63,844 nucleotides of DNA from Alphaproteobacteria bacterium (GTDB lineage Bacteria > Pseudomonadota > Alphaproteobacteria > Rs-D84 > CACZYB01): contig JBJEXC010000011.1 in the NCBI GenBank assembly GCA_051885355.1, forward strand, positions 1-63,844. The letters run 5' to 3'. Numbering within the stretch: position 1 is the stretch's first letter; every line of letters starts with the position of its first letter. The notes beneath the pieces were generated by a model. That model had not been told where the DNA came from and made no database searches. It saw only the letters and a program-made list of their open reading frames with translations. A program made the position numbers and the translations under genes. Positions 16,170-63,844 of this stretch are shown here, piece by piece.

Positions 16170-16175
16170 ATCACA

Positions 16176-42485: not shown

Positions 42486-42896
42486 TTATATTTCACTTAT
42501 GAAAAAGAAAAGTTCTTCAACCCGCCTTTTATATATACCTTTAAGTTTGGATTTAAAACCGAAATCCCATTCACGACAAATAGCCTCAAAATCTTTATTA
42601 ATAATAGCCTGCCTTAATTTAGATTTTTTAAACGCAGGACCACCAACATTATACACAAGTGATACAACGGCCTCCAATTGACGCCCTCTCAAATTCAAAT
42701 CAGAAATATATGGCATCACTTCACAATCAATCCATTTAGAAAGAAGTATCTCAGCCCTCTCCTCTGTAATACTCATTCCTTCATAAACAGGCACACCATC
42801 AACACTTGTATTTCCATAACCAATAGTCCAAACACCAGCCGGACATTTATAGGCAACAAGTAAGCACCCTTCATACTTTTTTATCAAAGAATTCAT
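42486..42896 (-). CDS. Phage-type lysozyme (GH24 endolysin)
   Basis: KKYEGC...AYKCPAGVWTIGYGNT contains the catalytic Glu and the TIGYG motif. The ATGA start overlaps the upstream lipoprotein stop. Confidence 0.85.
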   Translation of the reverse strand: MNSLIKKYEGCLLVAYKCPAGVWTIGYGNTSVDGVPVYEGMSITEERAEILLSKWIDCEVMPYISDLNLRGRQLEAVVSLVYNVGGPAFKKSKLRQAIINKDFEAICREWDFGFKSKLKGIYKRRVEELFFFISEI

Positions 42897-43123
42897 TTGC
42901 ACTCACTCATATAAATTTCATAATAAATATTAAGATGACGAGCCGTTTCCAAAGTATCCTGTCTGCTTGGAAGCATAGGTTCATATATGGCACAAAAACT
43001 ATCAATCTCGGTAGTGCAACTTGTCAGCACTAACACTATTAACACGAGATTTAATCTTAGTTTTCGTATTAACTTTTTTAAGAATTTTTTTAGTCTGCTT
43101 TGCTTTCTGTTTCGACACACCAT
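42893..43123 (-). CDS. Rz1/o-spanin-like lysis lipoprotein
   Basis: Basic N-region, lipobox LVLTSC, and a short mature part with conserved Cys (CAIYEPMLPSRQDTLETARHL...C). The start is embedded out of frame in the upstream ORF. Confidence 0.5.
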   Translation of the reverse strand: MVCRNRKQSRLKKFLKKLIRKLRLNLVLIVLVLTSCTTEIDSFCAIYEPMLPSRQDTLETARHLNIYYEIYMSECK

Positions 43124-48131: not shown

Positions 48132-48139
48132 TAAAAATA

Positions 48140-48967
48140 TCAATTGTCATTATACCCCAAACCATTTCTAGTACATAAAGTGTCTTTCCACCATTGTTCT
48201 CTATCTATAATAATTTTATCACTTACTTTAGAATTAAATATATCTAATATTGAATACTGAAAATTTTTCTTTATATAATCAAATCCTTTTTCATTTACAA
48301 TTTTTTTTAAGATTTTATTTCCTCCATGCCCATTATCGACATAATTTTTCCATCTTCCAAGTAACGCTTCATTTCCATATGCAGATCCCACATATAATTT
48401 ACCATTATTTTTATCTGTTATTAAATATACCGCTTTTTGATTTTTAAAAGCATTTATCCAATCTATCTTATTTTTCTCCAATATATTTTTTAATTCAATA
48501 TATGATAAACACACATTATCATAACCTTTAAATTCTTTTCCATCATAAGGAGTTGGCAAAATATTAGTTACAATAAGTTTGTCTAAACAGTTATTTGCAG
48601 TAAGACATTGTTGTTGACTCGTTTTATGAAAATTTATAATAATTCTTCCAAAAAATGGTTTATATTCATCTAATTCAGTCCCCTCAAAAGAAATTCCATT
48701 TTTAATCTTTAAATCTTTTGTAACCTTTTTTATTGTTGTTAATAAATGTGTATCTGCATTTAATTCTAATAAAGATATGGCAATTTGTCCCTCTTTAAAA
48801 TTAGCATTATAAGTTCTTCCAAACAAATAATTTATATTAACTATATCTGGATTTTCCACATACTTATCTACTATGTCTTTTTCTGAATAATAATTATTAA
48901 ATTTTATTTTAGTAATATTAACCTGATCTTTAGTCAAATGAAGTATATCATTAAGTTTTATATCCAT
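48140..48967 (-). CDS. GIY-YIG nuclease-domain protein with about 170-aa N-terminal domain of unknown function
   Basis: KAVYLITDKNNGKLYVGSAYG...LLGRWKNY... is a GIY-YIG core. Confidence 0.75.
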   Translation of the reverse strand: MDIKLNDILHLTKDQVNITKIKFNNYYSEKDIVDKYVENPDIVNINYLFGRTYNANFKEGQIAISLLELNADTHLLTTIKKVTKDLKIKNGISFEGTELDEYKPFFGRIIINFHKTSQQQCLTANNCLDKLIVTNILPTPYDGKEFKGYDNVCLSYIELKNILEKNKIDWINAFKNQKAVYLITDKNNGKLYVGSAYGNEALLGRWKNYVDNGHGGNKILKKIVNEKGFDYIKKNFQYSILDIFNSKVSDKIIIDREQWWKDTLCTRNGLGYNDN

Positions 48968-49293
48968 TTTCTTTCCTATATGTTTAATATATTTTAAGTA
49001 TCAATACACATTACTAAATATAATAATATAACTAAAAGAATAAAATCACAACTATTTCTTCAGCATATTTATAATTTTAAAATAAACAAACATAGAATAT
49101 TCAAAATTTAACCATAAATAATTATAGAAACTTCATTTTTACATTCCTATAAATGTAATTTCTAACATTTTTAGGTTCCAATAAATGTAATTTTTTTTAC
49201 ATTTTAGTTTGATACAATATATTTTTTATGAAAAATAACAAAACTGTCCTTTATATATATAATAATAACTACTTCAAAATAAGTTAAAGATAC

Positions 49294-50643
49294 TTAATTT
49301 TCAAGCCTCATTAACCAATTAAGAACATTTTGACGCTTTATTCCATTTATATCTTCACTACCAATATCCATTGACAATATATATTTTTTATAGTTATCAT
49401 TTATTTCTTTTAATGGGCGAAGTTCTCTATTCAATGTATCTGTAGATTCATTAACATAATATGCAACTTGATAATATTCTACAATATTATCTTTTTTAGC
49501 TACAAAATCAACTTCTATTGAAACTCGTTCTGTTTTACCTTCTTTATTCTTTATATACTTAGATATTTGACCAAAGGAAACTTTATAACCTCTTCTTAAT
49601 AATTCTAAATATACAAGGTTCTCCAGCATATGACCTTTATCTTCAGTATACTTTCTGTTAGCAAGTAAAGTATTTCTTAAACCTATATCAACAACAAAAT
49701 ATTTTGAATTACCATTTAATATTTGCTTTCCTTTTATGTTATATCTTTTACATTCATATAATAAGTAACTATCCAATAAACCTTTTATATATTTTGATAT
49801 ATCTGGAACAGATATTTTTATTCCCGTATTTTTAAGAGCATTTGCTATTCCTCTTAAAGATGTTTCACTTCCTATATTATTGAATATATATAAAATTACA
49901 TTCTCTAAATTTTTAGAATTTTTTATATTAAATCTTTTTATTATATCCTTTTGTAAAGTATTGTTATAAACAACATCTCTAAGGTAATCTTCTATCATCT
50001 GTCTATCCCAAGATAAATTAACAGTTTGAGGAAAACCACTATTTTGAATATATTTTAAATATATGTCATTTATACTATCTTTAGTTAATACTTCTTGTTT
50101 TGATTTACCATTGTTTTCATTTGTCAAAAGATAAGCTCCATAGTATTCAGCAAATGAATAAGGTTGCATTTTTATTTCAACATATCTACCCCCAAAGAAA
50201 TTAGAAAGATCACTTGAGAACATATATGCATTTGAACCAGTTAGATATACATCAACATTATCTTGCAAACGTAAAGTATTTGCTACCTGTTGCCAATTAT
50301 TAAGAAGTTGTATTTCATCTATAAATACATAATTCATTTTATTTGGTTGAATTTTACTCATAATAAAATTAAGCAATGTTTCAAAACTATCCAAGAAACC
50401 ATCCTTATTCAAAGACAATCCTATTTCTTGAACTTTTAGTTGGTCTTCAAGGTTTATACTTATTATTTGGTCTTTTGTTATCTTCTTTTCTTCTAATAAT
50501 TTGTTTTGAAATATTTCCAAAAGTTTGGACTTACCGCAACGTCTTACACCTGTGATTATTTTCACTAAATCAGGTGAATTACTCCATTTCTCTAGTTTTT
50601 GGATATATTCATTCCTGTAAAATAAATTTTTATCGTAAGGCAT
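49294..50643 (-). CDS. AAA-type ATPase (AAA_14 + DUF4143 architecture)
   Basis: P-loop GVRRCGKSKLL, Walker B VFIDEIQ and a C-terminal DUF4143-like region. Start at MPYDKN. Confidence 0.8.
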   Translation of the reverse strand: MPYDKNLFYRNEYIQKLEKWSNSPDLVKIITGVRRCGKSKLLEIFQNKLLEEKKITKDQIISINLEDQLKVQEIGLSLNKDGFLDSFETLLNFIMSKIQPNKMNYVFIDEIQLLNNWQQVANTLRLQDNVDVYLTGSNAYMFSSDLSNFFGGRYVEIKMQPYSFAEYYGAYLLTNENNGKSKQEVLTKDSINDIYLKYIQNSGFPQTVNLSWDRQMIEDYLRDVVYNNTLQKDIIKRFNIKNSKNLENVILYIFNNIGSETSLRGIANALKNTGIKISVPDISKYIKGLLDSYLLYECKRYNIKGKQILNGNSKYFVVDIGLRNTLLANRKYTEDKGHMLENLVYLELLRRGYKVSFGQISKYIKNKEGKTERVSIEVDFVAKKDNIVEYYQVAYYVNESTDTLNRELRPLKEINDNYKKYILSMDIGSEDINGIKRQNVLNWLMRLEN

Positions 50644-50883
50644 TTTAACCTCCATAATGCTTTTCCCTTTAATTATATTACGATTTTGTGTAAAGTCAAT
50701 ATTTTATTTGAAATTTCTAAACAATTTTATGTATATACACACTTTTGTTTAAAAAATTTATAATAATTTTAAAATAACAGATAATATTTCTTATACCACA
50801 TTTTCTCTTAAAAGTCAAGAACAAAATACAAACATTATTTTCCCCTTGCCTTATATAATCGGAGTTAGTATAATTTTCCCATT

Positions 50884-52563
50884 ATGAAAAAGGTATTTTT
50901 AGTTATTTTTGTATTTTGTGCGAGGGTGGTATTTTCGCAAACTCCTGAGCAGATTCAACGTTCACAACAGCAATTAATTGATGCAGGATTTAAGAGGCAG
51001 GAGTTAGAGCGTGCGATCAGCAAACCGTCCACTCAACAACCACAACAAAGTGAGGAAACTGCACCTCAAAAATCATCGCATTGCGTTCAAATCAACAGCA
51101 TTGAATTTGATGGAAATACAAAACTTTCCACCCACAAAATCAACAAACTTTCAAAACCTTTTCTTAATAAATGCCTGACGGTGGAGGAGATAAACAAACT
51201 TCTTAACACTATCACAAACGCCTATATTGACAAGGGTTTTATCACAAGCGGGGCTTACCTTAAAACTCCGCAAACCAAAACCAAAGACGGCATTTTGCAA
51301 ATCAAAATCATAGAGGGGACTATTGAAAAAATTAATGGGTTAAAGGAGGCGGAACGCATCTCCGCATTTCCAAATTTGCTTGGTAAAATTCTAAATCTTC
51401 GTGATATAGAGCAAGGGCTTGACCAGATGAATCGCCTTTCTTCCAACCACGCAACTATGGAAATAACCGCATCCGAAAATGCAAACGGAGCAAGCCAAAT
51501 CGTGATTAAAAACACCCCTGAAAGTCGCGTTTCCTATAACACTTACACCGACAATCTCGGCTCCAAATCCACGGGTCAATACAGGGCTGGTGTCAACTTC
51601 GGCATTGACAATATGTTGGGCGTCAACGACCAATTAAACATAGGCTACACAAACTCACTTACCGAACATTACGGTGATAAAAATTCACACTCCGCAAGCA
51701 TAGGTTTTTCTGTGCCATTCGGGTATTGGACCTTCACAAACAACACCTCCTACTCCTACTATAAAACCAATGTAAAACTTCCGATAAGCAGGGAAAAATT
51801 ATACTCCTTCGGCGACAGCTGGACTGACAATTTTTCCGTGGAACGTTTGCTTGCCAGAGGGCAAAAGTATAAGGTTTCCGCATTGGTCGGATTATCATAC
51901 AAGGAAAACGATAACTACACAAAGGTCCTTGACATACTCACAAAAAACGAGGTATCAAGCAGGCATCTTTCAAACATAGAATACGCCTTGCCAACGACAA
52001 TTTATTTTGACCGAGGCGTCATATTCGCAAAGCCATCTTTTGTGAACAGAGTAAAACTTTTCGGGAGTTTAGAGGACGATGGAACCTTCCAACAAAAGGC
52101 TCAATTTGAGGCATACAAACTTTACCTTTACACAGGTTTCAATTTTGGTTTTGTGAATTTGGCAACCACCTTTGACGGTCAATACAGCCCTGATGAACTT
52201 TTCTCCTCCGACGGATTTTATATTGGAAGTGAAGCATCGGTCAGAGGTTTTGCTAACGAAGGTTTAACCGGGGACAGTGGCTTTTACATAAGGAACGATT
52301 TGAAGTTTAATTTGGCGGATATTTTTAAAAGTCAGAATGTGTTTTTGAGAGATTTTAGCCCAAGCATTTTCTTTGATTACGGTTTTGTAAAAACCAATAA
52401 CGATGATGAAAAATCGGAGCTTTCAAGTATGGGTGCAAAAATAAATTACAGATATAAGATAGTGGATTTTTCCACCACCTACGCCCACCCGTTGAAAAAA
52501 GAAACTGAAATGTCCGGCACCCCCGAAACCTACTTCACGATTTCAATCAATGGAAGGTTTTAG
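50884..52563 (+). CDS. ShlB/FhaC/HecB-family two-partner-secretion outer-membrane transporter (TpsB)
   Basis: Signal peptide, POTRA-type region (VQINSIEFDGNTKLS...ITNAYIDKGFITSGAYL...ILQIKIIEGTIEKI), a beta-barrel-type C-terminal half and a terminal F. Confidence 0.9.
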   Translation: MKKVFLVIFVFCARVVFSQTPEQIQRSQQQLIDAGFKRQELERAISKPSTQQPQQSEETAPQKSSHCVQINSIEFDGNTKLSTHKINKLSKPFLNKCLTVEEINKLLNTITNAYIDKGFITSGAYLKTPQTKTKDGILQIKIIEGTIEKINGLKEAERISAFPNLLGKILNLRDIEQGLDQMNRLSSNHATMEITASENANGASQIVIKNTPESRVSYNTYTDNLGSKSTGQYRAGVNFGIDNMLGVNDQLNIGYTNSLTEHYGDKNSHSASIGFSVPFGYWTFTNNTSYSYYKTNVKLPISREKLYSFGDSWTDNFSVERLLARGQKYKVSALVGLSYKENDNYTKVLDILTKNEVSSRHLSNIEYALPTTIYFDRGVIFAKPSFVNRVKLFGSLEDDGTFQQKAQFEAYKLYLYTGFNFGFVNLATTFDGQYSPDELFSSDGFYIGSEASVRGFANEGLTGDSGFYIRNDLKFNLADIFKSQNVFLRDFSPSIFFDYGFVKTNNDDEKSELSSMGAKINYRYKIVDFSTTYAHPLKKETEMSGTPETYFTISINGRF

Positions 52564-52565
52564 AA

Positions 52566-52627
52566 GCATTTACACTTGATGTGAAAGTGAAGAGGAGGAT
52601 AAGGATATAGGTGAGGATGTTAGTCAT
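52566..52627 (-). pseudogene. Stand-alone remnant of the cassette leader (MTNILTYILILLFTFTSSVNAS), no toxin body
   Basis: A sixth copy of the conserved leader block. Homology stops 3-7 nt from the tpsB stop codon. Confidence 0.7.
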
Positions 52628-52637
52628 TTTTCTATTC

Positions 52638-53132
52638 TTACAATTTAAAAATAATATAACTTTCATTATATACGAATATTTTTTCTAATATCATATCAAT
52701 ATTATTGATATTTATTTTTACTAAAAATTCTTTTATAAAACACAGAGCATCAAATTCATTTAATTTATATTTAATTCTACAATCTTTAACAACATCACAC
52801 AGATTTATTGAACGGATTTTTAATTCTTCCTCTAATAATTCAATTAAATCTCTTTCATTCAAATCATTATAAACAAAATGTAAATGATTAAAATTACATA
52901 AAGATAAATCTATATTTTTCCACAATTTTTGTAAAAAAATATCTCTAGGGATAATAAATTCTTTACCATTTTCCTGAGTTATTATATCCAGTAAAAGTTC
53001 TCTAAAATTTATTGAATATTTAAAATTCACATACTTTCCCTGATGAAAATATATTTCATTTGCCATAGTCAAAATTTCTTGTTTTTCATTTAACAATTTA
53101 ATAAACTGCAAAATAATTTCATTTTCTGTCAT
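52638..53132 (-). CDS. Immunity-like small protein (164 aa)
   Basis: Second small ORF after toxin ORF 53586-54596. AAGGAAA Shine-Dalgarno; no motif recognised. Confidence 0.5.
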   Translation of the reverse strand: MTENEIILQFIKLLNEKQEILTMANEIYFHQGKYVNFKYSINFRELLLDIITQENGKEFIIPRDIFLQKLWKNIDLSLCNFNHLHFVYNDLNERDLIELLEEELKIRSINLCDVVKDCRIKYKLNEFDALCFIKEFLVKININNIDMILEKIFVYNESYIIFKL

Positions 53133-53181: not shown

Positions 53182-53466
53182 TTAAATATTATCAAGTAAA
53201 TCTTTTAAATCAATGACATCTTCTTCAATTATAAAACTCCTATTTAAATTATCCAAAAATTCTAACCCAAATTTTAAGGATTCTGGATTTATAAAAATTC
53301 TGTAATTAGAATCATTTATACCTGTAAAATCTGTTAACAAATAAATATTTTTACCATTTATATTGCACATTTTTAACGGAATTTTATGAGAAAAATACCA
53401 ATCTTTTAAATGGGATTCTGGTAATTTTTCTTCTTGCTCTTTTATAAATTCTTCAATATTTTCCAT
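53182..53466 (-). CDS. Immunity-like small protein (94 aa)
   Basis: Starts 9 nt after the stop of the frameshift-restored toxin frame (TAA at 53476-53478). Confidence 0.5.
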   Translation of the reverse strand: MENIEEFIKEQEEKLPESHLKDWYFSHKIPLKMCNINGKNIYLLTDFTGINDSNYRIFINPESLKFGLEFLDNLNRSFIIEEDVIDLKDLLDNI

Positions 53467-53585
53467 TTTCTATCCTTACTTTTTTATAGTATCTGTTGTG
53501 TATATAGGACCTGATTTATAAGTAGCTTTACCATTTTCAAAAATTTCCACATGTGTATGAGGAGTACTATGAGGATGAGGATTAT

Positions 53586-54596
53586 TTAAATCAAATCTAA
53601 CCTTTTTAGTAATATTACTTCTTGACTCATAAAAACAGTATCTCCTGATTTATTTTTTATTACCTTAACGTTATTTCCTAAAAATTCTTCTATATCATTA
53701 GCAATTTTATCAATCTTCTTAGAGTTTATACCAGAGTTACCACTCTTCGCTCCAACCTCTTCCATTGTAGTCATATTTTTATTAGATGCAACATTTGTTT
53801 TCATTGACGAGTATAAACCATATACGCCTATACTCATATTAACTGTATTACCTGCCATATCCCAGGTCATATCTGAATTATTCATATACTGACCTGAGAA
53901 GTTCTCATAATAACCATATTCATTTTTTCCCTGATATAACATATAGCCATCTTCTGCAAACCCTGTTAAACCCATTGATGTATAGCCAATACCTGAAACT
54001 AAATTACTACCACCAACAGTAAAACCTGAAGATACAAGACCTAATCCATTCTTTGCAGTAGAATACATCAACTGATTTTTATTTACTTTTCCATTTTCTG
54101 TATAATACATTCCATTACTATCTGGACCAGTTTTCAAACTTGCTATATTACTTCCTAAATTTTGAGCACTTTTACCTGCAGTATATGCTGTCCAAGCCCA
54201 CATTCCTAGTTTTACTGCTCCTATCACAAGAGGAGGAATATTATCCCTATTCTCTACCCTACTCCAATCTATCGTATTCCCTATTACATAAGATGAATTG
54301 TTATCCACGCTCCAATTACCCAAACTGGTATCTTTTCCGTTTATCCATAGACTGTCGGTATATGCTCCTATGAAGTTATTACCAAGATACTTTGCGAAAT
54401 CTTCATTTGAGCCATATATTGCATGACCTACTTCATGACCAAATACTCCCAATCCTTTTTCTGTATTTCCATTTATATATAAATCATTTAGGTATATATC
54501 GTGGGTATCTTTATCGTGGTGTTGTATATAGCAAGCGTTTACACTTGATGTGAAAGAGAAAAGGAGGATAAGGATATAGGTGAGGAAGTTAGTCAT
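53586..54596 (-). CDS. Leader-bearing polymorphic toxin cassette T5 (HExxH module + variable C-terminus; apparently frameshifted near the 3' end)
   Basis: Leader MTNFLTYILILLFSFTSSVNAC, then HDKDTHDIY...FGHEVGHAIYGS...WSRVENRDN, then a unique region. A second frame continues to 53476. Confidence 0.7.
   Translation of the reverse strand: MTNFLTYILILLFSFTSSVNACYIQHHDKDTHDIYLNDLYINGNTEKGLGVFGHEVGHAIYGSNEDFAKYLGNNFIGAYTDSLWINGKDTSLGNWSVDNNSSYVIGNTIDWSRVENRDNIPPLVIGAVKLGMWAWTAYTAGKSAQNLGSNIASLKTGPDSNGMYYTENGKVNKNQLMYSTAKNGLGLVSSGFTVGGSNLVSGIGYTSMGLTGFAEDGYMLYQGKNEYGYYENFSGQYMNNSDMTWDMAGNTVNMSIGVYGLYSSMKTNVASNKNMTTMEEVGAKSGNSGINSKKIDKIANDIEEFLGNNVKVIKNKSGDTVFMSQEVILLKRLDLI
54248..54551. repeat. 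304-bp perfect direct repeat, copy 1 (copy 2 at 55838-56141)
   Basis: Every 10-mer block was checked by eye at a constant offset of 1590 bp. Confidence 0.9.
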
Positions 54597-55161
54597 TTTT
54601 TAGAAGTAATTCATTTATATCCAAATTTAATTTTTTTAATAAAATATCTTCATTATCATAAAATAATTTATCAATTAAATTATCTTTTTTTAATTCATTT
54701 AAAACATATATTAAAAAACCTACTATTGTTATAGTATTTAATTTAAAATTATTTATCCCATCATTTAAAATAGTATTTAAGTTTATTTTTAAATTTTTAT
54801 CCCTTATATCTTTAAATAAATATATATATTCTTTAATACTAATTCCTAAAACAGAACTATACTGGTTAATATTTATTTTTACAAAATACCTCCAATAATT
54901 TAATAAATTCAATATATTGCGAAGTGTATTATTCATTAATTGAGTATTAACAATTCTATTTTCTAATTCAGCATCCCCAAATTCTATATCTATAATAGAA
55001 ATCAAAGAGTTAACCTCATAAACAAACTCTTTTTCTGTTTCATTTATATTATCTATATTAAAATAATATTGAAAAATATCAGATAAACTATGTTGTTTAT
55101 TAAGAATAAAATTATACAAATTATTCATTTGATCTATAATATATTTTGATTCTATATACAT
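54589..55161 (-). CDS. Immunity-like protein (190 aa)
   Basis: Starts 8 nt after the T4 stop. Its last codons AAT GAC TAA overlap the T5 leader ATG. Confidence 0.55.
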   Translation of the reverse strand: MYIESKYIIDQMNNLYNFILNKQHSLSDIFQYYFNIDNINETEKEFVYEVNSLISIIDIEFGDAELENRIVNTQLMNNTLRNILNLLNYWRYFVKININQYSSVLGISIKEYIYLFKDIRDKNLKINLNTILNDGINNFKLNTITIVGFLIYVLNELKKDNLIDKLFYDNEDILLKKLNLDINELLLKND

Positions 55162-55169
55162 TTCTTTTC

Positions 55170-56186
55170 CTATTTCAAATTAGTTATTTTTCTACCTGGA
55201 ATAACTGTAATAACAGAACCTTCATTATTTGTTACTACATTTACTTTATTAATTTTATCATAATAATATATTTTTGTAGCAGAACTATTAATTTCTTTAG
55301 TTCCCGAAGAAATAGTATTTTCTACAACAGATGGAGAAAGACCTCTACCTTGCATTTGATCTAATGCATGTCCTGTATAATATCTGTCTAATATTGTCGT
55401 AGGTTTATTTGTCCCAGATTGTATAGATATAGGATTATTTATTACTCCAACAATTTCATGTGTTCCTGTTTTAGGTAATGGTTTTGCAACCTTTTCCGCT
55501 TCTCCAAGATATTTTAAATCTGTTCCTATACCACTAATATGATCTATGTCTAAAGCATCATCAACTTTACTCATTAACTTTGAACCAACCTTACTTACTG
55601 CTTTTCCTCCTACATATAATCCCCCTCCAATGATTAAATCTGTCGCTCCTTCTTTTATGTTCCCTCCAGCTGTATATATCTTACCGTCTACTATCGGATC
55701 CTTATATTCTGTCTTACCCTTATATCCTTTCCCCTTTATCCATGCATATATCTTCCTTGCACTATCTTGGATTGAGTATACCTCTCCTGCTATTACTAAA
55801 GCTGTTATTGCCATACTAATAGGTTCAAAGTTGTCTTTATTCTCTACCCTACTCCAATCTATCGTATTCCCTATTACATAAGATGAATTGTTATCCACGC
55901 TCCAATTACCCAAACTGGTATCTTTTCCGTTTATCCATAGACTGTCGGTATATGCTCCTATGAAGTTATTACCAAGATACTTTGCGAAATCTTCATTTGA
56001 GCCATATATTGCATGACCTACTTCATGACCAAATACTCCCAATCCTTTTTCTGTATTTCCATTTATATATAAATCATTTAGGTATATATCGTGGGTATCT
56101 TTATCGTGGTGTTGTATATAGCAAGCGTTTACACTTGATGTAAAAGTGAAGAGTAGGATAAGTATATAGGTTAGAAAGTTAGTCAT
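55170..56186 (-). CDS. Leader-bearing polymorphic toxin cassette T4 (HExxH module, shared middle domain, RNase-like tip)
   Basis: Same leader and HExxH module (304 bp identical to T5), then VENKDN. The middle domain is shared with T0 and T1. The tip YYTGHALDQMQGRGLSPSVVENTI...GSVITVIPG resembles DUF4258/BECR-type RNase toxins. Confidence 0.7.
   Translation of the reverse strand: MTNFLTYILILLFTFTSSVNACYIQHHDKDTHDIYLNDLYINGNTEKGLGVFGHEVGHAIYGSNEDFAKYLGNNFIGAYTDSLWINGKDTSLGNWSVDNNSSYVIGNTIDWSRVENKDNFEPISMAITALVIAGEVYSIQDSARKIYAWIKGKGYKGKTEYKDPIVDGKIYTAGGNIKEGATDLIIGGGLYVGGKAVSKVGSKLMSKVDDALDIDHISGIGTDLKYLGEAEKVAKPLPKTGTHEIVGVINNPISIQSGTNKPTTILDRYYTGHALDQMQGRGLSPSVVENTISSGTKEINSSATKIYYYDKINKVNVVTNNEGSVITVIPGRKITNLK
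55838..56141. repeat. 304-bp perfect direct repeat, copy 2
   Basis: See 54248-54551. Confidence 0.9.
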
Positions 56187-56568
56187 TTAAGTTTAAATTA
56201 TATATACTATATTTATCATATAATGTTAAAGAAATTAAATATCTATCATTTCTAATAGAAGAAACAAAAGTTAAATATTTTTTCATCTCATCTATAGCTT
56301 CATTTATGCAAACATTATAATTCTTTTTTGCTATATCACACTTATATTCCCAATGGGTGAATCCTGTAACATCATAATCATATATATTTTCATCAATTTT
56401 TGTGAAAATTTCACCAAAAGCAATCAACAATTTATGTTCTTTTATAAAATCTATAATATCATCTACAATATCAATATAAAAACCTAGTTTATTACTATGA
56501 TAAGGTAATAGTGGATATACTTTATCTTGTAAATTTTCTTTTAAAAAAATTCTATATTCAACCTGCAT
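56179..56568 (-). CDS. Immunity-like protein (129 aa)
   Basis: AGGAG Shine-Dalgarno 9 nt after the T3 stop. Ends ...LND with a stop overlapping the T4 leader ATG. Confidence 0.55.
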   Translation of the reverse strand: MQVEYRIFLKENLQDKVYPLLPYHSNKLGFYIDIVDDIIDFIKEHKLLIAFGEIFTKIDENIYDYDVTGFTHWEYKCDIAKKNYNVCINEAIDEMKKYLTFVSSIRNDRYLISLTLYDKYSIYNLNLND

Positions 56569-56577: not shown

Positions 56578-58038
56578 CTAACGTAAATTTTTAGTTATTT
56601 TATTAGCTTCTTTAAATAATCTATGTGTTATAGTATTATTTCTAGGATCTAACACATATTCAAAAAATCCTTTATTCCCATTTTTAGTACCTTCTATAAT
56701 AGCTTTATAATATATATTATTATCTCCTCCTGTAAATTTAACCCAATCTTTTGGTTTTAATAATTTATCTATTAAAATAGGAAAATCATGATTATCACCT
56801 TTCCCAATTTTACTTAATACAGAGGAACTATATTTAAAATCATTAGCATCACCTTTAAATAACCCTCTAATACCTCCCTTAATACCTTTCACAAATGGTG
56901 CTATTCCCATTAATAAATTACCACCAATATCCATTGTACCATATATCTTTAAATTTGTCTCTAAATCTTCTGATGATATATGTTCTCCACTTGGTCTCAT
57001 ATATTCTCCATTACCTATATATCCTACATCAGCTATCGCTTTTGCCTCACCTCCTTTGTATGCTCCTACAGCTGCAATAATTACTCCTCCCACAAAAGTT
57101 ATCGTAACAGGCTCTAAATTATCCCTGTTCTCTACCTTACTCCAATCCATCGTATTCCCTATTACATAAGATGAATTGTTATCCACGCTCCAATTACCTA
57201 GACTGGTATCTTGTCCGTTTATCCATAGGCCGTCGGTATAGGCTCCTGTGAAGTTATTACCCAGATACTTTACGAAATCTTCATCTGAGCCGTATATTGC
57301 ATGACCTACTTCATGACCGAATACTTCCAATCCCTTTTCTGTATTTCCATTTATATACAAGTCATTTAGGTATATATCGTGGGTATCTTTATCGTGGGAA
57401 CCTCCTGTGATAACTCCTACCACTTTGTTGGTATTATCATTTACACCAAGTTCCATACCAGCAAAAGTTTTAACATTACCGATTTTTATATAATCGTCAT
57501 CGGTTTCATCTTTACCTGTATTATAGATACCAGCAATTTCATTTTTAAACATAGCAAGAGCTATATCTTTTTCTTCCACAGTTGCATCAATTTGACCAGA
57601 CAGAATCGCAACCGCTTCTTCACCACCGTTTGTATTCAATAGATTTGATATTGCAAGCTTAGATACTTCTTTGTATCTGATACCACTTAAAGCTTGGTTC
57701 AAAGTGACATCAGTCATAACTGCGTCATACAAATTAGTTGCTATATTTTCAATGAAACTCTCAGATACCTTGAAATCCTTCAATATCTTCTTTCTCCCCT
57801 CCCCACTAAACACCCTATTGTCTATAGTCATACTTCCATCCAAAGCACCAGTGATTTTATCCTTTGTAATTTCTTGAGCTCTTTCTACATCCCTGTTTAG
57901 TCCCTCTAAATCAGAGTTAGTTTCCCCTCCTACTGTTATATTACCTGGGCCTATTGTTGCGTGAGGAAGATAACAAGCACTTACACTTGATGTAAAAGTG
58001 AAGAATAGGATAAGGATATAGGTGAGAAAGTTAGTCAT
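56578..58038 (-). CDS. Leader-bearing polymorphic toxin cassette T3 (pre-toxin block + HExxH module + unique tip)
   Basis: Leader, then HATIGPGNITVGGETNSDLEGLNRDVERAQEITKDKITGALDGSMTIDNRVFSGEG, a linker, then HDKDTHDIY...HEVGH...VENRDN and a unique 180-aa C-terminus. Confidence 0.75.
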   Translation of the reverse strand: MTNFLTYILILFFTFTSSVSACYLPHATIGPGNITVGGETNSDLEGLNRDVERAQEITKDKITGALDGSMTIDNRVFSGEGRKKILKDFKVSESFIENIATNLYDAVMTDVTLNQALSGIRYKEVSKLAISNLLNTNGGEEAVAILSGQIDATVEEKDIALAMFKNEIAGIYNTGKDETDDDYIKIGNVKTFAGMELGVNDNTNKVVGVITGGSHDKDTHDIYLNDLYINGNTEKGLEVFGHEVGHAIYGSDEDFVKYLGNNFTGAYTDGLWINGQDTSLGNWSVDNNSSYVIGNTMDWSKVENRDNLEPVTITFVGGVIIAAVGAYKGGEAKAIADVGYIGNGEYMRPSGEHISSEDLETNLKIYGTMDIGGNLLMGIAPFVKGIKGGIRGLFKGDANDFKYSSSVLSKIGKGDNHDFPILIDKLLKPKDWVKFTGGDNNIYYKAIIEGTKNGNKGFFEYVLDPRNNTITHRLFKEANKITKNLR

Positions 58039-58789
58039 TTTTCATCAAAACTGAAAATCTTATAATCAAATCAGAAAACAATAAAGATTTAAAATCTTTT
58101 TCATCATAAATCTCTATATTACAATCTGATATCAATGTATCTTTGGTTAAGGTATCAAAATAATTTTGTAATATTTGTTGCTTCTCTTTGTTTTCATTAC
58201 CAATAGGAATAAATTTAATTTTATAATCATTTATTATAATATCCCCTAAATATATATTTTCAATTTTTTTCAAATAAATCTTTGTATCATTAAAAACAGA
58301 CTTTGCCATATTGTCACTATATAAGGAATATATATTACTTTGCATTTGAGAAGTATTTTTTCCATGATAATCCAACATATTTTTCTTTCTTCTACAAGTC
58401 TGATTTCTACTATATGTCTTCCATTCTAAAACTTTATCAGAATTATCTACTTTAAATATTCCATTTTGATCAAAACTAAGTATACTATGCCCAGTTCCTA
58501 TTTTCAAATCTTCCTCACTAAAAGAAGTAATCAATTTTTTTCTACTTTTATCTTCATAAATAAAATATCTGATATCTCGTCTATCCTGTAAAGATATATT
58601 AGGATTATAATCAAGATTTAAAATATCACCTTTTTTAAAATACAATACATTATTATATTTGAAGTAAGGAATATAAACAAAAATTTCATCATAATATAAA
58701 TTTTTAATTACAACAGGAAAAACTGGATATACAATATGAAAACAAGCAGTTAATACCAACAAAATACACATTATAAATATTTTCTTCAT
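58031..58789 (-). CDS. Immunity-like lipoprotein (252 aa)
   Basis: Start at MKKIFIMCILLVLTACF (lipobox LTAC), 1 nt after the T2 stop. Ends ...KND overlapping the T3 leader ATG. The longer ORF-track start (58978) overlaps T2 and is rejected. Confidence 0.55.
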   Translation of the reverse strand: MKKIFIMCILLVLTACFHIVYPVFPVVIKNLYYDEIFVYIPYFKYNNVLYFKKGDILNLDYNPNISLQDRRDIRYFIYEDKSRKKLITSFSEEDLKIGTGHSILSFDQNGIFKVDNSDKVLEWKTYSRNQTCRRKKNMLDYHGKNTSQMQSNIYSLYSDNMAKSVFNDTKIYLKKIENIYLGDIIINDYKIKFIPIGNENKEKQQILQNYFDTLTKDTLISDCNIEIYDEKDFKSLLFSDLIIRFSVLMKND

Positions 58790-58790
58790 T

Positions 58791-59648
58791 TTAAATTCCC
58801 TTATATTTTTGATTTCCATATTTATCTGCATCGGCTTCAAATCTATTTTTTGATGTAAATGGATTATCCAATAAATACATAGGTAAAAATAGTGGCCCCC
58901 ACTGTCTATACTGTTGAACATGTCTATTTTCATGCTCTCTCCATATTGTCCAATCATCTTCTGTAGGAACCTCAACAAATAATCCTAACTCCCTTGCCTC
59001 TTTTACTCTTTCTGAATATTCATATGTACGATTAGCAATATCTATACCATCTCCATAATCATCAACATATCCAAAATAATTTACAACTTGTCCAAATGTT
59101 GTAGCCCAATCATTTAAATTTTCCTCTCCAAATAAACCATTTAACATATGAAACAAAGGATTTCCTATTATATTATGAATTCTATTTTCTTCATCATATT
59201 CATGTCTAGCTCCTAATAAAACTCCGATAGCTCCAATTGTAGCACCTATCATAGTATTTGGCAAGTTCCAAATATCTCCCAAAACTGTTAATGTATTCCC
59301 TACTAAATTCGTATGATCCTCTATTATACTCCTCCAGCCCTCTCCGCTAAATACCCTATTGTCTATAGTCATACTTCCATCCAAAGCACCAGTGATTTTA
59401 TCCTTTGTAATTTCTTGAGCTCTTTCTACATCCCTGTTTAGTCCCTCTAAATCAGAGTTAGTTTCCCCTCCTACTGTTATATTACCTGAGCCTATTGTAG
59501 CGTGAGTTATTTGTTCCTTTTCCGAACCCTTGTCCTTCATAGTTATAGTTGTTGAACCGTTTGGATGGATGGAGTAGTAATAGCAAGCATTTACACTTGA
59601 TGTGAAAGAGAAAATAAGAATGAGGATATAGGTAAGGAAGTTAATCAT
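58791..59648 (-). CDS. Leader-bearing polymorphic toxin cassette T2 (pre-toxin block + HExxH-containing tip)
   Basis: Leader MINFLTYILILIFSFTSSVNAC, a pre-toxin block 135 bp identical to T3, and a tip with NLPNTMIGATIGAIGVLLG and REHENRHVQQYRQWGPLF. Confidence 0.75.
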   Translation of the reverse strand: MINFLTYILILIFSFTSSVNACYYYSIHPNGSTTITMKDKGSEKEQITHATIGSGNITVGGETNSDLEGLNRDVERAQEITKDKITGALDGSMTIDNRVFSGEGWRSIIEDHTNLVGNTLTVLGDIWNLPNTMIGATIGAIGVLLGARHEYDEENRIHNIIGNPLFHMLNGLFGEENLNDWATTFGQVVNYFGYVDDYGDGIDIANRTYEYSERVKEARELGLFVEVPTEDDWTIWREHENRHVQQYRQWGPLFLPMYLLDNPFTSKNRFEADADKYGNQKYKGI

Positions 59649-60218
59649 TTATTTTAAGAAAAAATCTTTGTAATTATTATAAATATTTATAATCCCAACA
59701 TATGGATTAAAATCTAAATTTACTTCTACTTCTTTTTTTAAGTTCTTATAAAAATTATAAAAATTATTTATATATTGCTTATAAGTATTTCCAAAAATAC
59801 CCTTTAAATTTTCTTCTTTTCCAATCCATATATGATAATAGTCATTATCATTAAAAATCATTACTTTTTCATCACTTGATATTAAAACGAAATAAAGAAA
59901 ATGAAGAGTTAAATATATATCAGAAGGTAATATATCTGGATAGTCATTAAGATATATCATTTCATTATCTCCCAATAAAGATATTATTGCTTTTTGATTA
60001 ATAAAATATCTATCAAATAATAATCTTTCACTATCTTCATCAAAAATATTTTCAACAAAAGGTATAATTTTCAAATTATTTTGAATAAGATATTTTCTAT
60101 CCAATTCCCAATAGGAATTTTCTGAAGTTTTACATTCAATTGTTATATTTTTACACAAATTTAAAATATATTTACTTTTTTTCTTAAAAAATATATCTCT
60201 AATATCTAATAACATCAT
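59649..60218 (-). CDS. Immunity-like protein (189 aa)
   Basis: AGGAGAA Shine-Dalgarno 5 nt after the T1 stop. Its stop directly abuts the T2 ATG. Confidence 0.55.
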   Translation of the reverse strand: MMLLDIRDIFFKKKSKYILNLCKNITIECKTSENSYWELDRKYLIQNNLKIIPFVENIFDEDSERLLFDRYFINQKAIISLLGDNEMIYLNDYPDILPSDIYLTLHFLYFVLISSDEKVMIFNDNDYYHIWIGKEENLKGIFGNTYKQYINNFYNFYKNLKKEVEVNLDFNPYVGIINIYNNYKDFFLK

Positions 60219-60223
60219 TTCTC

Positions 60224-61252
60224 CTATTTATATCTAATATCAATATACTTTCCCAAATTATAATCATATACTTCCAAAGTATCAACCCCTTTCAAGGAAG
60301 TACTTTTATGTAAATTTATAATTTCTCCATCTCTTGTACTTCCAATTATAGCATTATTTTTATGGATAGGTTCAACAACATTTATAGAGCTAAAATCGTC
60401 TAAAGCATTTCCTCCCTTCTCATAATTAATAACTTTTTTAGGACTATTTTGAATTGTTGATAGTTTAGAATCCTTCAAAATATTATCAAAACTATTAACT
60501 TTATCAACTGGTTTTAAATCAGTTCCTATACCACTAATATGATCTATATCTAATGCATCATCTACCTTACTCATTAACTTAGAACCAACCTTATTTACAG
60601 CTTTTCCTCCTACATATAATCCCCCTCCAATGATTAAATCTGTCGCTCCTTCCTTTAAATTACCTTCAGCTGTATATATTTTCCCATTTATTGGATCAAC
60701 ATAAGTTGTTTTTCCTTTATATCCTTCTCCATCAAACCATGCATATATTTTCCTTGCACTATCTTGGATTGAGTAAATACTTGCTGCAATGGCTAATCCA
60801 GTCAATATAAAACCATCTCCTCTACCCTCTCCTGTCATAGTATTATGCAAATCCGATATAAGTCCAAGACTTCCCTCCCTTATCGTATCCTCTCCGCTAT
60901 GAGATTCTAACCACTCATCTCCTCCCATTCCATTAGTATTCTCGTTACCATAGTTCTTTAGTCCGAAGATTCCTGCTCCTGTATCTCCTCTATTCTTCGC
61001 AGTAATCTCATTTGCATTATGTTCTTCAAAGTTTGTAGTTTCGTGATACAACGCATTCATCAAAGCTTTTGGATCGGACATATCTATATTTGCCATATTA
61101 AGCGTTATATTTTTTACTTCGCTGTCGTTACTTTGATATGCAAAACCTATTATATTTCCATTTTCTGTTGTTGTATGTGGAACATAGTAGACATTTACAC
61201 TTGATGTAAATGTGAAGAGGAGAATGAGGATATAGGTGAGGAGTTTAGTCAT
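60224..61252 (-). CDS. Leader-bearing polymorphic toxin cassette T1
   Basis: Leader MTKLLTYILILLFTFTSSVNVYY, then about 650 bp identical to the partial ORF at the window edge, then a unique 110-aa tip. Confidence 0.75.
   Translation of the reverse strand: MTKLLTYILILLFTFTSSVNVYYVPHTTTENGNIIGFAYQSNDSEVKNITLNMANIDMSDPKALMNALYHETTNFEEHNANEITAKNRGDTGAGIFGLKNYGNENTNGMGGDEWLESHSGEDTIREGSLGLISDLHNTMTGEGRGDGFILTGLAIAASIYSIQDSARKIYAWFDGEGYKGKTTYVDPINGKIYTAEGNLKEGATDLIIGGGLYVGGKAVNKVGSKLMSKVDDALDIDHISGIGTDLKPVDKVNSFDNILKDSKLSTIQNSPKKVINYEKGGNALDDFSSINVVEPIHKNNAIIGSTRDGEIINLHKSTSLKGVDTLEVYDYNLGKYIDIRYK
60513..61161. repeat. About 650-bp direct repeat, copy 1 (identical by eye to 62808-63457)
   Basis: Line-by-line comparison of T1 and T0 DNA. 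Confidence 0.85.
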
Positions 61253-61691
61253 TTATTTTTTTTAATGTAAAAACACAATCTTTTATATTCATTGTTTTAT
61301 ATATAATATTATTATTTAATTTCACAGAGTATTTCACTATATCATTCGGATATTTATCATGAGTTAAAAAATTATTATAAGAAGAATATAAATCATTAAA
61401 TAATAGTTTACATTTTTTATCACAATATAATTCAACTTTATAACTATTAAGAGGATAATCAACAAAACAATATTTTAATGATTTATGAAAATTATCAAGA
61501 ACTGTTATATTCTTAGCCCATATATCTTCATCAAGAAAATCATCTTCCCAACGCATAATTGGAAAAGATTTTTCATTAACAAAATCTAATATTTTTTTAT
61601 AATTATACACTAAATCATTAGGATTTAAAATATCTTGCACTTTATCTTTAATATTGTAAGTTTTATCTTTTTTTTTATTAATACCAAACAT
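61245..61691 (-). CDS. Immunity-like protein (148 aa)
   Basis: ATG preceded by AGGTGATTAAT. Ends ...IND overlapping the T1 leader ATG. Confidence 0.5.
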   Translation of the reverse strand: MFGINKKKDKTYNIKDKVQDILNPNDLVYNYKKILDFVNEKSFPIMRWEDDFLDEDIWAKNITVLDNFHKSLKYCFVDYPLNSYKVELYCDKKCKLLFNDLYSSYNNFLTHDKYPNDIVKYSVKLNNNIIYKTMNIKDCVFTLKKIND

Positions 61692-61700
61692 ATTAATCAC

Positions 61701-62051
61701 CTAATCAAATTCTACAATATCATTAAAATCTCTAACAACATATAAATAATGTTCATTATTATTTCTTATTAAAACGGCTTCTGGTCCATTAAAACCTGTA
61801 TCACTCATATCAATCTCAATATAATTATTATTGTTTAAGATAAGTTTTATATAAGTATTTTCTTTTTCTTCTATTTCTATTATGCTTTTCCCAATTAAAT
61901 TTTCCAATCTATCATTAAATATGTATGTATTAACTATTTCAATATTAAATAAATTATTCAAACCCAAAGTAATATCCTTATCAATTCCAATATAAATGCC
62001 AACAATACTTTGATTTAACAATTTGTCTTTTAATTCACTTTTTATATACAT
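61701..62051 (-). CDS. Immunity-like protein (116 aa), paralog of 62111-62461
   Basis: Shares a C-terminal pattern with its neighbour (...PEA..L.....N..YL....FN[DE]I..F). Confidence 0.5.
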   Translation of the reverse strand: MYIKSELKDKLLNQSIVGIYIGIDKDITLGLNNLFNIEIVNTYIFNDRLENLIGKSIIEIEEKENTYIKLILNNNNYIEIDMSDTGFNGPEAVLIRNNNEHYLYVVRDFNDIVEFD

Positions 62052-62110: not shown

Positions 62111-62461
62111 CTACCTAAAATCATATATTTCATTAAAATTATTGTAAATAAGATAAATATTATTTCCCTCAGATTTTAAAGAAAAGGCTTCTGGGGTATC
62201 ACAAGAATCGGCATCTAATCCAATAAAGAATTCCAAAGAGTTATCTAAAACAAATTTAATTTTTTCATCCAAACAAGCCTGTATTTTTATTATGTTATGA
62301 TTTTTACATTCTTCTATACCAAAAGGGAAATAACACTTGTTATTGACTGAAAGATAAATATCTTTATCAAATTCAAAATCATAAACAGAAATATTATCTT
62401 TTATAGAGATCAATCGTTTATTTAAAAGGATATTATTTAAACGTTTTTCAATTTCTAACAT
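62111..62461 (-). CDS. Immunity-like protein (116 aa), cognate position for the edge toxin ORF
   Basis: The ATG lies 1 nt after the stop of 62463-63844 and is preceded by AGGTGAT. Confidence 0.55.
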   Translation of the reverse strand: MLEIEKRLNNILLNKRLISIKDNISVYDFEFDKDIYLSVNNKCYFPFGIEECKNHNIIKIQACLDEKIKFVLDNSLEFFIGLDADSCDTPEAFSLKSEGNNIYLIYNNFNEIYDFR

Positions 62462-62462
62462 A

Positions 62463-63844
62463 TTAATCACCTATTTTTATAGAAAAATGCCCTTTCATTC
62501 CTTCATCTATTTGTTTTAATGTATAAGGATCAATACCTGCGTTACTTTTTGGTAAAGAATACTTTACATACCCATTAGGATATGCAGGTATTTTACCATT
62601 ATTTTTAGCTTCCACAGGATTCATAATTCTCATATCAACTTGTGTTCCTTTTATTGTACCACCTTCTAATATAACGCCTTTCCCATTATTTGCAAGGTTT
62701 AGTGTATAATTTTCTGGAACAGGAAATACTTGACCTGAAGAATCCACAAAGAAATTTGTTCCTGTCTTAGGTAATGGTTTTGCGACCTTCTCCGCTTCTC
62801 CAAGATATTTTAAATCAGTTCCTATACCACTAATATGATCTATATCTAATGCATCATCTACCTTACTCATTAACTTAGAACCAACCTTATTTACAGCTTT
62901 TCCTCCTACATATAATCCCCCTCCAATGATTAAATCTGTCGCTCCTTCCTTTAAATTACCTTCAGCTGTATATATTTTCCCATTTATTGGATCAACATAA
63001 GTTGTTTTTCCTTTATATCCTTCTCCATCAAACCATGCATATATTTTCCTTGCACTATCTTGGATTGAGTAAATACTTGCTGCAATGGCTAATCCAGTCA
63101 ATATAAAACCATCTCCTCTACCCTCTCCTGTCATAGTATTATGCAAATCCGATATAAGTCCAAGACTTCCCTCCCTTATCGTATCCTCTCCGCTATGAGA
63201 TTCTAACCACTCATCTCCTCCCATTCCATTAGTATTCTCGTTACCATAGTTCTTTAGTCCGAAGATTCCTGCTCCTGTATCTCCTCTATTCTTCGCAGTA
63301 ATCTCATTTGCATTATGTTCTTCAAAGTTTGTAGTTTCGTGATACAACGCATTCATCAAAGCTTTTGGATCGGACATATCTATATTTGCCATATTAAGCG
63401 TTATATTTTTTACTTCGCTGTCGTTACTTTGATATGCAAAACCTATTATATTTCCATCTACATTTGCAAGTTTTAAATCTCCACTAAATCCGCCACCTTC
63501 TGCTACAAAATCAGCAACTTGTTGTAATATGGCTTGAGCTTCTGGAGAATCAAAATCAGTCATTCCGTTAAGAGCCACAACTAAATCCCTACGTTTCTCC
63601 TGCAACTCTGTCATCTGCCTGTCTTGCTTTACATAGTCTGCAATCGTATCTATCAAATCCTTCGTTTTATCAGTAATTGCATTTTCTATCGCCTTTACTA
63701 CTATATTGTTTCTCAACCCACTTCCTATTTGAACAAGGTTATCCCCTATCTCCTCATGTTGCTTAACTATCTCCGCTCTTCCCTCTCCACTAAATACCCT
63801 ATTGTCTATAGTCATACTTCCATCCAAAGCACCAGTGATTTTAT
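62463..63844 (-). CDS. C-terminal part of a toxin-bearing exoprotein T0 (5' end outside the window)
   Basis: The frame is open to the window edge, where it reads KITGALDGSMTIDNRVFSGEG, identical to T2 and T3. It then has a linker, a degenerate zincin-like module (LYHETTNFEEH), the shared middle domain and a unique tip. Confidence 0.8.
   Translation of the reverse strand, partial: KITGALDGSMTIDNRVFSGEGRAEIVKQHEEIGDNLVQIGSGLRNNIVVKAIENAITDKTKDLIDTIADYVKQDRQMTELQEKRRDLVVALNGMTDFDSPEAQAILQQVADFVAEGGGFSGDLKLANVDGNIIGFAYQSNDSEVKNITLNMANIDMSDPKALMNALYHETTNFEEHNANEITAKNRGDTGAGIFGLKNYGNENTNGMGGDEWLESHSGEDTIREGSLGLISDLHNTMTGEGRGDGFILTGLAIAASIYSIQDSARKIYAWFDGEGYKGKTTYVDPINGKIYTAEGNLKEGATDLIIGGGLYVGGKAVNKVGSKLMSKVDDALDIDHISGIGTDLKYLGEAEKVAKPLPKTGTNFFVDSSGQVFPVPENYTLNLANNGKGVILEGGTIKGTQVDMRIMNPVEAKNNGKIPAYPNGYVKYSLPKSNAGIDPYTLKQIDEGMKGHFSIKIGD
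62808..63457. repeat. About 650-bp direct repeat, copy 2
   Basis: See 60513-61161. Confidence 0.85.

Follow-up and report, generated by a model that had tools for sequence, protein, structure and literature searches.

Orphan toxin modules of contact-dependent growth inhibition (CDI) loci are, in textbook accounts, silent spares: they have no start codon or export signal and become useful only once they are recombined into the main toxin gene. A toxin array at 52.5-63.8 kb on the minus strand of contig JBJEXC010000011.1 (Alphaproteobacteria bacterium, GTDB lineage Rs-D84, CACZYB01; assembly GCA_051885355.1) raises the question why five successive spare modules all begin with a start codon and the same leader, each time in frame. 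The window, by which we mean the whole stretch of 63,844 nucleotides (nt) that was analyzed, is an entire metagenomic contig of an uncultured gut bacterium with a GC content of ~30%. Our answer, which we consider likely, is that these cassettes are translated fusions in which recombination joined the signal peptide of the transporter gene tpsB to 3' fragments of the toxin gene tpsA, that their frame is under selection, and that their products are predicted to be exported by the Sec pathway. An original prediction for this DNA had proposed either selection for exported truncated toxins or a dedicated joining mechanism.

Joins of a common leader to a composite scaffold

The array opens with T0, the 3' end of a main TpsA-like toxin gene (62463..63844, minus strand), and continues with five complete open reading frames (ORFs), T1-T5, each with one to three small ORFs behind it. 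T0 runs off the window at the contig end, which falls inside its repeated stalk, so that its N-terminus lies beyond the window. The visible part holds the last conserved stalk motif (IDNRVFSGEGR), a module A (GNIIGFAYQS...YHETTNFEEH) and a toxin tip. Main genes of related loci (L006, L013, L014 and L017) carry PF05860 and PF13332, and the L006 counterpart encodes a 2416-aa TpsA with TPS and Fil_haemagg_2 domains. T1-T5 share a leader of 22 residues, M-T/I-N/K-F/L-L-T-Y-I-L-I-L-L/I/F-F-T/S-F-T-S-S-V-N/S-A. At the DNA level it is a discrete element of ~68 nt (AAATGACTAAC...ACATCAAGTGTAAATGCTTGC(TAT)), of which a repeat finder and DNA alignment located six copies in the window. In four of the five cassettes the upstream small ORF stops within this element (AAT GAC TAA, or N-D-stop), overlapping the ATG of the leader.

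That the leader is grafted in frame at four different depths, as originally predicted, was confirmed when the join points were checked by blastp and codon alignment, although the interval to which the prediction was tied (56578-61252) holds T1-T3 only, with T4, T5 and T0 falling outside. All cassettes lie on the minus strand. T1 (60224..61252) consists of the leader (61187-61252), a filler VPHTTTEN, module A and a toxin tip. In T2 (58791..59648) the leader (59583-59648) is followed by C-Y-Y-Y, the stalk from S-I-H-P-N-G onward and the toxin, a join that was also found in L006 and L008. T3 (56578..58038) has the leader (57973-58038), C-Y-L-P, the stalk from H-A-T-I-G, a module B that contains HEXXH and terminates in VENRDN, and the toxin. 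T4 (55170..56186) has the leader (56121-56186), C-Y-I-Q-H, module B from H-D-K-D and a toxin, and T5 (53476..54596; leader 54531-54596) is joined in the same way. The toxin tip of T5 is frameshifted near 53613: the annotated ORF (53586-54596) stops at 53586, and the homologous frame runs on to 53476, reading ITKKVRFDLNNPHPH..THVEIF, a sequence with a homolog in the tail of P0011, a relative that is intact. The sites named in advance were thus the right ones and several of the distances were not: the T3 join lies 23 rather than 25 residues past that of T2, the T4/T5 join at HDKDTHD corresponds to residue 215 of T3 (~210 had been given), and T1 joins GNIIGF at residue 130 instead of ~115 of the visible T0. 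Nor do all cassettes join after a leader Cys, as had been assumed, because T1 has none and reads ...SSVNVYY.

The supposed single linear scaffold turned out to be a composite of a conserved stalk and two toxin-specific modules. T2 and T3 enter the conserved TpsA stalk before its last conserved motif, IDNRVFSGEG(R/W), and keep 60-85 residues upstream of this boundary; T0, T2, T3 and the L006 TpsA are alike through the motif and then diverge, with a small ORF behind each toxin. T1 enters a module that is restricted to T0-type C-termini, and T4 and T5 enter the HEXXH-containing module of T3-type C-termini. The latter module terminates in VEN(R/K)D(N/D) (approximate positions 54240-54260, 55830-55850 and 57115-57135), which marks the point where T3, T4 and T5 diverge and hence the start of the toxin tip (codon 116 of T4 and T5). 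Pfam gave no above-threshold match for T0-T5 or for the immunity-like ORFs behind them, apart from which the T4 toxin has a weak, sub-threshold match to DUF4258; PDB sequence searches of T0, T2, T3 and T4 returned no matches. A search with the T3 protein found few relatives, all of them metagenomic, and many of these carry the leader at other depths. Fusion points are not fixed among relatives, since the T3 toxin is joined at HATIG in the window and at HDKD in L006. Exact look-ups of the T1 and T3 proteins in other assemblies found neither on record, so these two join types are seen in this contig only.

How strict is the frame? In the window, the five cargo-bearing leaders are all in frame with ORFs of 285-486 aa. 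When the count was extended to related loci, taking only non-terminal and uninterrupted leader copies, 22 of 22 leaders headed long ORFs in frame, and these represent 12 join types. If joins were random with respect to frame, the chance of 12 in-frame types would be ~(1/3)^12, which supports the earlier view that the fusions are not random truncations. A skeptical reading would be that the cassettes are silent relics, with the leader as a neutral hitch-hiker and the in-frame state as a by-product of searching for ORFs. Classical orphan modules are indeed untranslated (PMC3150448), T5 is frameshifted, and a promoter and terminator scan of the window gave counts not above those of shuffled controls. 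The leader scans, however, were run at the DNA and six-frame level and did not depend on gene calling, yet at non-terminal positions they returned nothing other than in-frame long ORFs. Neutrality is also contradicted by the signatures of selection given below, and we regard the relic reading as improbable.

Source of the leader and formation of the joins

Where does the leader come from? An exact-pattern scan of genome contigs with the leader DNA of the window gave one chance match only, in a Chitinophagaceae metagenome-assembled genome, because this DNA differs too much from locus to locus. When metagenome contigs were scanned with a degenerate leader pattern that allows for codon choice, two cassette-bearing contigs (L011 and L012) came up, along with two contigs (L009 and L010) in which the leader heads a full TpsB, reading MTKLLTYIFILFFSFTSSVNA before QVSSQIQR, that is, MTKLLTYIFILFFSFTSSVNA before QVSSQIQRQQQQLIDAGF.... 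In L009 this tpsB stands directly behind the 3' end of a T3-type toxin and its T3-type immunity gene, with a stop/start overlap (AAATGACTAA) that is the same as the one before T4 in the window. Among 21 TpsB clusters of the sister clade, which are 57-61% identical to the TpsB of the window, ~17 have the leader and 4 a partly related variant, and more distant TpsBs have a recognizably related signal peptide, MTKKTLILAIAAAFSFATAAQA before QV. The clade of the window TpsB itself has a different one, MKKVFLVIFVFCARVVFS before Q. Assembly chimeras are an unlikely source of the leader-headed tpsB genes, which occur in many independent samples. From this distribution, with the leader on TpsBs of the sister clade and related peptides on distant ones, we conclude that the leader is the ancestral Sec signal peptide of TpsB and that the cassettes captured it. 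They are thus tpsB'-'tpsA-3' fusions, composed of the first ~22-23 codons of tpsB and a 3' fragment of tpsA, and the "functional-looking N-terminus" of the original prediction has its source in the transporter. The signal peptide of TpsA was considered as another source and ruled out, as the L006 TpsA begins with the unrelated sequence MSKNRNRDLTFMRKF....

The gene order of related loci fits such an origin. In L013, L014 and L017, tpsA, immunity gene, one or more leader cassettes and tpsB follow each other in a single direction. The leader heads the closing tpsB of L013 and of L014, and that of L017 has a partly related variant signal peptide. With N cassettes, the N+1th leader of L013 and L014 is accounted for because it belongs to tpsB itself. 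The window departs from this order. Its tpsB, a ShlB/FhaC-type transporter gene (50884..52563, plus strand; Pfam ShlB at 6e-68, POTRA_2 and POTRA_3), is convergent with the array and encodes the signal peptide MKKVFLVIFVFCARVVFS. A near-consensus promoter-like site, TTGCCT-N17-TATAAT (50846..50874, plus strand), lies 9 nt before its ATG at 50884, and no Shine-Dalgarno sequence is visible beside that site. The sixth leader copy, Lx (52562..52627, minus strand), is a 26-codon ORF without cargo that at its 3' end runs right up to the stop codon of tpsB (0 nt in between), with a microhomology, CTA, common to both. In two close relatives of the window, L006 and L002, tpsB is likewise convergent, and a degraded Lx is found at exactly this junction (at ~18800-18850 in L006). 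In L016, the same TTGCCT-N17-TATAAT site precedes the matching tpsB allele, and this tpsB, with the same MKKVF signal peptide as in the window, is co-directional behind an array. An inversion of mature tpsB only, leaving Lx behind and a new signal peptide in front, is ruled out by the L016 arrangement. As a separate observation, two samples of one series differ in the state of a tpsB that they share: at L002 13314-14992 it is broken into ORFs of 223 and 336 aa, and at L006 18851-20530 it is intact (559 aa). Arrays can also occur away from both partner genes. Between rpsF-rpsR-rplI and dnaB, L008 (7843-15110) has four full-length leader cassettes and a truncated terminal cassette, which is cut after 69 codons where it adjoins dnaB; neither tpsA nor tpsB lies within 10 kb.

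The junctions themselves are sharp and contain 0-8 filler codons. Leader-side breakpoints range from six codons inside the leader (between FSF and GFNIDL) to 2 codons after it, a spread of ~10 codons that includes breakpoints at the leader end (between VN and G, and between VSS and KF), and the commonest one lies after C-Y. Short homologies (GNI, GL, NG, CTA) are found at the junctions. Some joins look derived from others. The filler of T1 (VPHTTTEN-GNI) matches T3 (LPHATIGP-GNI) at 22 of 34 nt, so that T1 resembles a T3-type fusion in which a short homology carried the join from GNIT to GNII. In L008_13194 and L014_7806 the P0007-type filler, FVKSE(S/D)GL, is still present and a jump at G-L follows, and P0008 retains the FIETET filler of the outermost join. 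At that outermost join, C-Y-F of the cassette aligns with H-D-F of the stalk. Most cassettes have C-Y in place of the Q-V of TpsB, which points to one founding fusion that was followed by nested changes.

These features bear on whether a dedicated site-specific joiner, similar to an integron or shufflon, uses the leader DNA as its recognition site and attaches it to toxin modules. Such a system would suit a discrete element (~68 nt in the window) with sharp boundaries, present in N+1 copies per N cassettes, the cargo-less terminal copy of which stops at the same point as the cassette junctions. The leader DNA varies, however, at 19 of 21 third positions between loci, the leader-side breakpoints scatter, the homologies at the junctions are of an ordinary short kind, and the N+1 pattern arises because the last leader is that of tpsB. 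Moreover, neither the genes called over 10 kb to the tpsB side of the array nor those of the related loci were found to encode an integrase or recombinase domain. Together with the joins that derive from other joins, these points leave the second of the two earlier proposals, a dedicated joining mechanism, without support, and we consider it very improbable. Two narrower versions were rejected as well: the leader as a DNA recombination site is ruled out by its third-position variability, and a hot spot near the leader, suggested by the clustering of joins there, is largely definitional because each cassette has one leader-proximal join.

Homologous exchange has left clear traces. T0 and T1 are 100% identical over ~650 nt, from exactly the T1 join to the point where the toxin tips diverge. 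T4 and T5 show 7 differences in the first 45 nt of the leader, followed by 304 nt without a difference that extend to the VEN(R/K)DN boundary, which means that the identical tract begins inside the leader. Judged by such tracts, gene conversion is recent, and rearrangement is ongoing or was so until recently. An observation from L014 concerns the same kind of exchange: its main tpsA and its first leader cassette share an in-frame stalk stop (LNRDTSKA followed by the stop; 2689-2706 and 4221-4238), and both genes have an ATG-initiated continuation after it. This points to recent conversion between tpsA and the cassette or to a deliberately split gene.

The order of events that we infer is the following. 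In this lineage the ancestral order would have been tpsA, immunity gene and tpsB, with spare toxin-immunity modules accumulating between the last two. An unequal or illegitimate recombination, for example at a tandem-duplication junction, would have joined a point in tpsB just after the signal peptide to a point in the tpsA stalk, leaving tpsA and tpsB intact and adding one spare toxin-immunity unit. This spare would thereby have gained the start codon of tpsB, its coupling junction (AAATGACTAA) and its signal peptide. Short-homology deletions could then have produced the deeper joins, and gene conversion or homologous exchange in the shared modules and the leader would have reshuffled 5' ends and toxin tips. 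The frame would be kept since the cassettes are translated, and Sec is expected to export their products, with cleavage after V-N-A. In the lineage of the window, tpsB is a different allele with its own promoter-like site and signal peptide, in inverted orientation, which leaves the terminal leader, Lx, without cargo.

Selection, translation and the predicted fate of the products

Is the leader conserved as DNA or as a peptide? In 13 copies from three genomes, variable columns number 9, 4 and 19 of 21 at the first, second and third codon position, respectively, and the leader serine codons alternate between AGT and TCC. Pooled within the window, the ratio of nonsynonymous to synonymous polymorphism (pN/pS) of the leader is 0.18. 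Because the variation is mainly at third positions, conservation acts on the peptide and not on the DNA. The cassette bodies show a similar constraint: the ratio of nonsynonymous to synonymous divergence (dN/dS) is 0.15 for T3 against P0001 of L006 (272 codons, dS 0.31) and 0.12 for T0 against L006_A, and the immunity-like ORFs give 0.06-0.19 against their counterparts in a related metagenomic genome. The leader value taken together with those of the cassettes (0.12-0.15) indicates that translation is under selection. The first of the two earlier proposals, selection as the cause of the in-frame state, is therefore borne out as far as translation is concerned, with export as its predicted part. 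A side observation concerns codon usage: the leaders of the window have C at 39% of third positions, compared to ~3-9% in the adjacent cassette and immunity genes, and this bias was not found in the leaders of L008. C-ending codons could be rare codons within a signal sequence or could reflect a foreign origin.

Selection on translation might also act for the sake of the downstream genes. The frame might be kept only for ribosome traffic, that is, for translational coupling and for avoiding Rho-dependent polarity on the immunity genes and tpsB, with exported proteins that have no role. The genes are tightly packed and co-directional, the stops of immunity genes overlap the start codon of the leader, no terminator-like sites lie between the cassettes, and in sister loci tpsB comes last behind the same coupling junction. 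Ribosome traffic alone, however, would need no conservation of leader or body sequence, for which pN/pS is 0.18 and dN/dS 0.12-0.15, and leader and frame are kept even where tpsB is inverted and has its own promoter-like site (the window) or where no tpsB follows (L008). We consider this explanation unlikely.

With respect to export, the leader starts with M-T-K/N, has a hydrophobic core of 13-14 residues and ends in T-S-S-V-N-A, with V at -3 and A at -1. It fits the pattern for Sec-dependent export and cleavage by signal peptidase I, and export itself is thus predicted. As the cassette products have no TPS domain, they cannot use TpsB in the canonical way. A different fate would follow if the Cys after V-N-A were lipidated after cleavage by signal peptidase II. 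The products would then be membrane-anchored lipoprotein toxins with a delivery similar to that of SitA of myxobacteria, through vesicles or outer-membrane exchange and independent of TpsA; this concerns the mode of export and is compatible with an origin of the leader in tpsB. Lipoprotein toxins of the SitA type provide a known precedent (PMC5562445). Cys stands at +1 in ~70% of the cassettes (~20 of ~30), across many join types and encoded by both TGC and TGT, where TpsB has Q, and arrays such as that of L008 can exist without tpsA or tpsB nearby. The lipobox commonly follows the rule [LVI][ASTVI][GAS]C (PROSITE PS51257), and V-N-A-C falls outside it by having Asn at -2. In addition, intact cassettes have Gly or Asp in place of Cys (P0010, P0011, P0013, L008_11843 and L014_9050), T1 and three join types lack it, and C-Y is possibly just a legacy of the founding junction. 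The lipoprotein fate is a doubtful one in our view, if somewhat less so than the ribosome-traffic explanation.

Several points weigh against the account of selected, Sec-exported fusions of tpsB and tpsA. The purifying selection on the leader could in part be inherited from tpsB through gene conversion; against this, the tpsB of the window lineage does not use the leader, and no tpsB lies near the array of L008. A simple signal peptidase I reading leaves the Cys unexplained, since the TpsB that would have donated the leader has Q at +1. Not every cassette has been kept functional, given the frameshifted tip of T5 and a nonsense codon in the first cassette of L014. Furthermore, no locus among those compared has an orphan that is a plain duplicate of the main C-terminus, so that the founding duplication is a model only, and the model does not account for the junction between Lx and the tpsB stop. 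Finally, all loci compared are metagenome assemblies with repeats. Because the contig breaks inside a repeated stalk, the pairing of toxin tips with the 100% identical 5' tracts (T0/T1 and T4/T5) could be the result of mis-phasing by the assembler; the join sequences are unaffected by this, as they are located at boundaries between unique and repeated sequence.

Comparison with known systems and neighboring genes

Orphan cdiA-CT/cdiI modules of the Escherichia coli type generally have no translation initiation signals, and the EC93 orphan that was examined has no signal sequence either (Poole et al. 2011, PMC3150448). Like these orphans, the cassettes described here are 5'-truncated toxin modules with immunity genes beside a full-length TpsA-family gene, their sequence ahead of the variable part is homologous to that of the main gene, and orphan and main gene exchange sequence. 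Unlike them, they have a start codon, upstream coupling and a tpsB-derived signal peptide, and the array is found between tpsA and tpsB and not behind a cdiBAI operon. The boundary is also different, with IDNRVF..G(R/W) or VEN(R/K)D(N/D) and no Pfam PT-VENN match in T0-T5. As an aside, VEN(R/K)D(N/D) resembles the VENN boundary of E. coli CdiA. The order of toxin, immunity and transporter gene, with the transporter last, is that of Burkholderia-type bcpAIOB/cdiAIB loci, in which no orphan modules were found (Anderson et al. 2012, PMC3415462), and is seen here in L009, L013, L014 and L017. These loci differ from the Burkholderia type in having up to five or six orphans between the immunity and transporter genes and a boundary of IDNRVFSGEGR without an NxxLYN motif, to which the window adds an inverted tpsB.

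To our knowledge, the tpsC and mafB-CT cassettes of Neisseria meningitidis are without a start codon or leader of their own, whereas every cassette here has a TpsB signal peptide. The two systems resemble each other in having spare or silent 3' cassettes among small ORFs; those of N. meningitidis lie behind tpsA or mafB and reportedly enter the expressed gene by recombination (Arenas et al. 2013, PMC3848433). A conserved signal, a short conserved region, a variable C-terminal toxin and an adjacent immunity gene are shared with MafB (PMC4287609) and SitA (PMC5562445). Different from both are the leader, borrowed from a type Vb transporter gene, and the conserved region, a truncated TpsA stalk or module; there is no DUF1020 domain and no canonical lipobox. 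Integrons and shufflons differ from the array by having a conserved DNA site per junction and a linked recombinase gene. A limited full-text literature search turned up no report of orphan modules that begin with the signal peptide of a transporter, though given its limits such a report may exist.

In contrast to the silent fragments of E. coli, the spares described here are thus complete, translatable and probably exported genes, and a whole clade of loci reverses the silent-spare pattern, each spare being complete with the transporter signal peptide at its N-terminus. It is because the transporter gene comes last that spares become expressed fusion genes, and the loci may serve as a natural example of gene order shaping the fate of a recombination by-product. 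If the products are exported, many toxins would be deployed, or at least expressed, at once without the giant TpsA carrier. A more general idea is that in type Vb loci with the order toxin, immunity, transporter every orphan gains the start codon, coupling and signal peptide of the transporter, which would create a second, TpsA-independent arsenal exported to the periplasm or, through the Cys, to the membrane. We put this forward tentatively, as a possibility with about one chance in its favor for every few against. Such toxins might work by way of vesicles or of membrane exchange; alternatively, they might be addiction toxins of the periplasm, in which case they would re-enter the producer and enforce retention of the immunity genes.

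The small ORFs of the array, all on the minus strand, are immunity-like by position. Three of them lie behind T0 (62111-62470, 61701-62051 and 61245-61700), the last of which terminates in ...IND-stop within the T1 leader junction. The first two have counterparts behind a T0-type cassette in L006 (dN/dS 0.17-0.19), where the T0 toxin and two immunity-like genes form an orphan cassette, and 61701-62051 has a sub-threshold Pfam match to DUF3978. The ORF behind T1 (59649..60218) belongs to a family that is also found behind T1-type toxins in L014 and L008. Behind T2 follows a lipoprotein-like ORF (58031..58789), which terminates in ...KND-stop within the T3 leader junction; it was called as 58031-58978, and its real start is likely the ATG at 58789 (MKKIFIMCILLVLTAC...). 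Its N-terminal half is like L002 12513-12935 and its C-terminal half like L008 14456-14908, which suggests that two lipoprotein-type immunity-like genes have fused here. The ORF behind T3 (56179..56568) ends in ...LND-stop, overlaps the T4 start codon (ATGA) and has a dN/dS of 0.06 against its L006 counterpart; in L006, L009 and L014, too, the T3 toxin is accompanied by its immunity gene. Behind T4, ORF 54589..55161 terminates in ...KND-stop within the T5 leader junction, and T5 is followed by two such ORFs (53182-53466 and 52638-53132).

Further features lie outside the array. Defense- and phage-like genes stand beside the locus (47235-50655 and 42486-42902) and encode an AbiEii-type nucleotidyltransferase toxin, a GIY-YIG protein, an AAA_14/DUF4143 ATPase and a phage-type lysozyme. 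The tpsA of L006 is preceded by P2-like tail genes (GpU and gp25). The window also contains a CRISPR array of ~29 copies of a 36-nt repeat (GTTGCGATTTGACTTAAATTTCCTATATGCTATAAT) beside a gene for a 1287-aa type II Cas9 on the minus strand (14285-16171 and 17571-21434).

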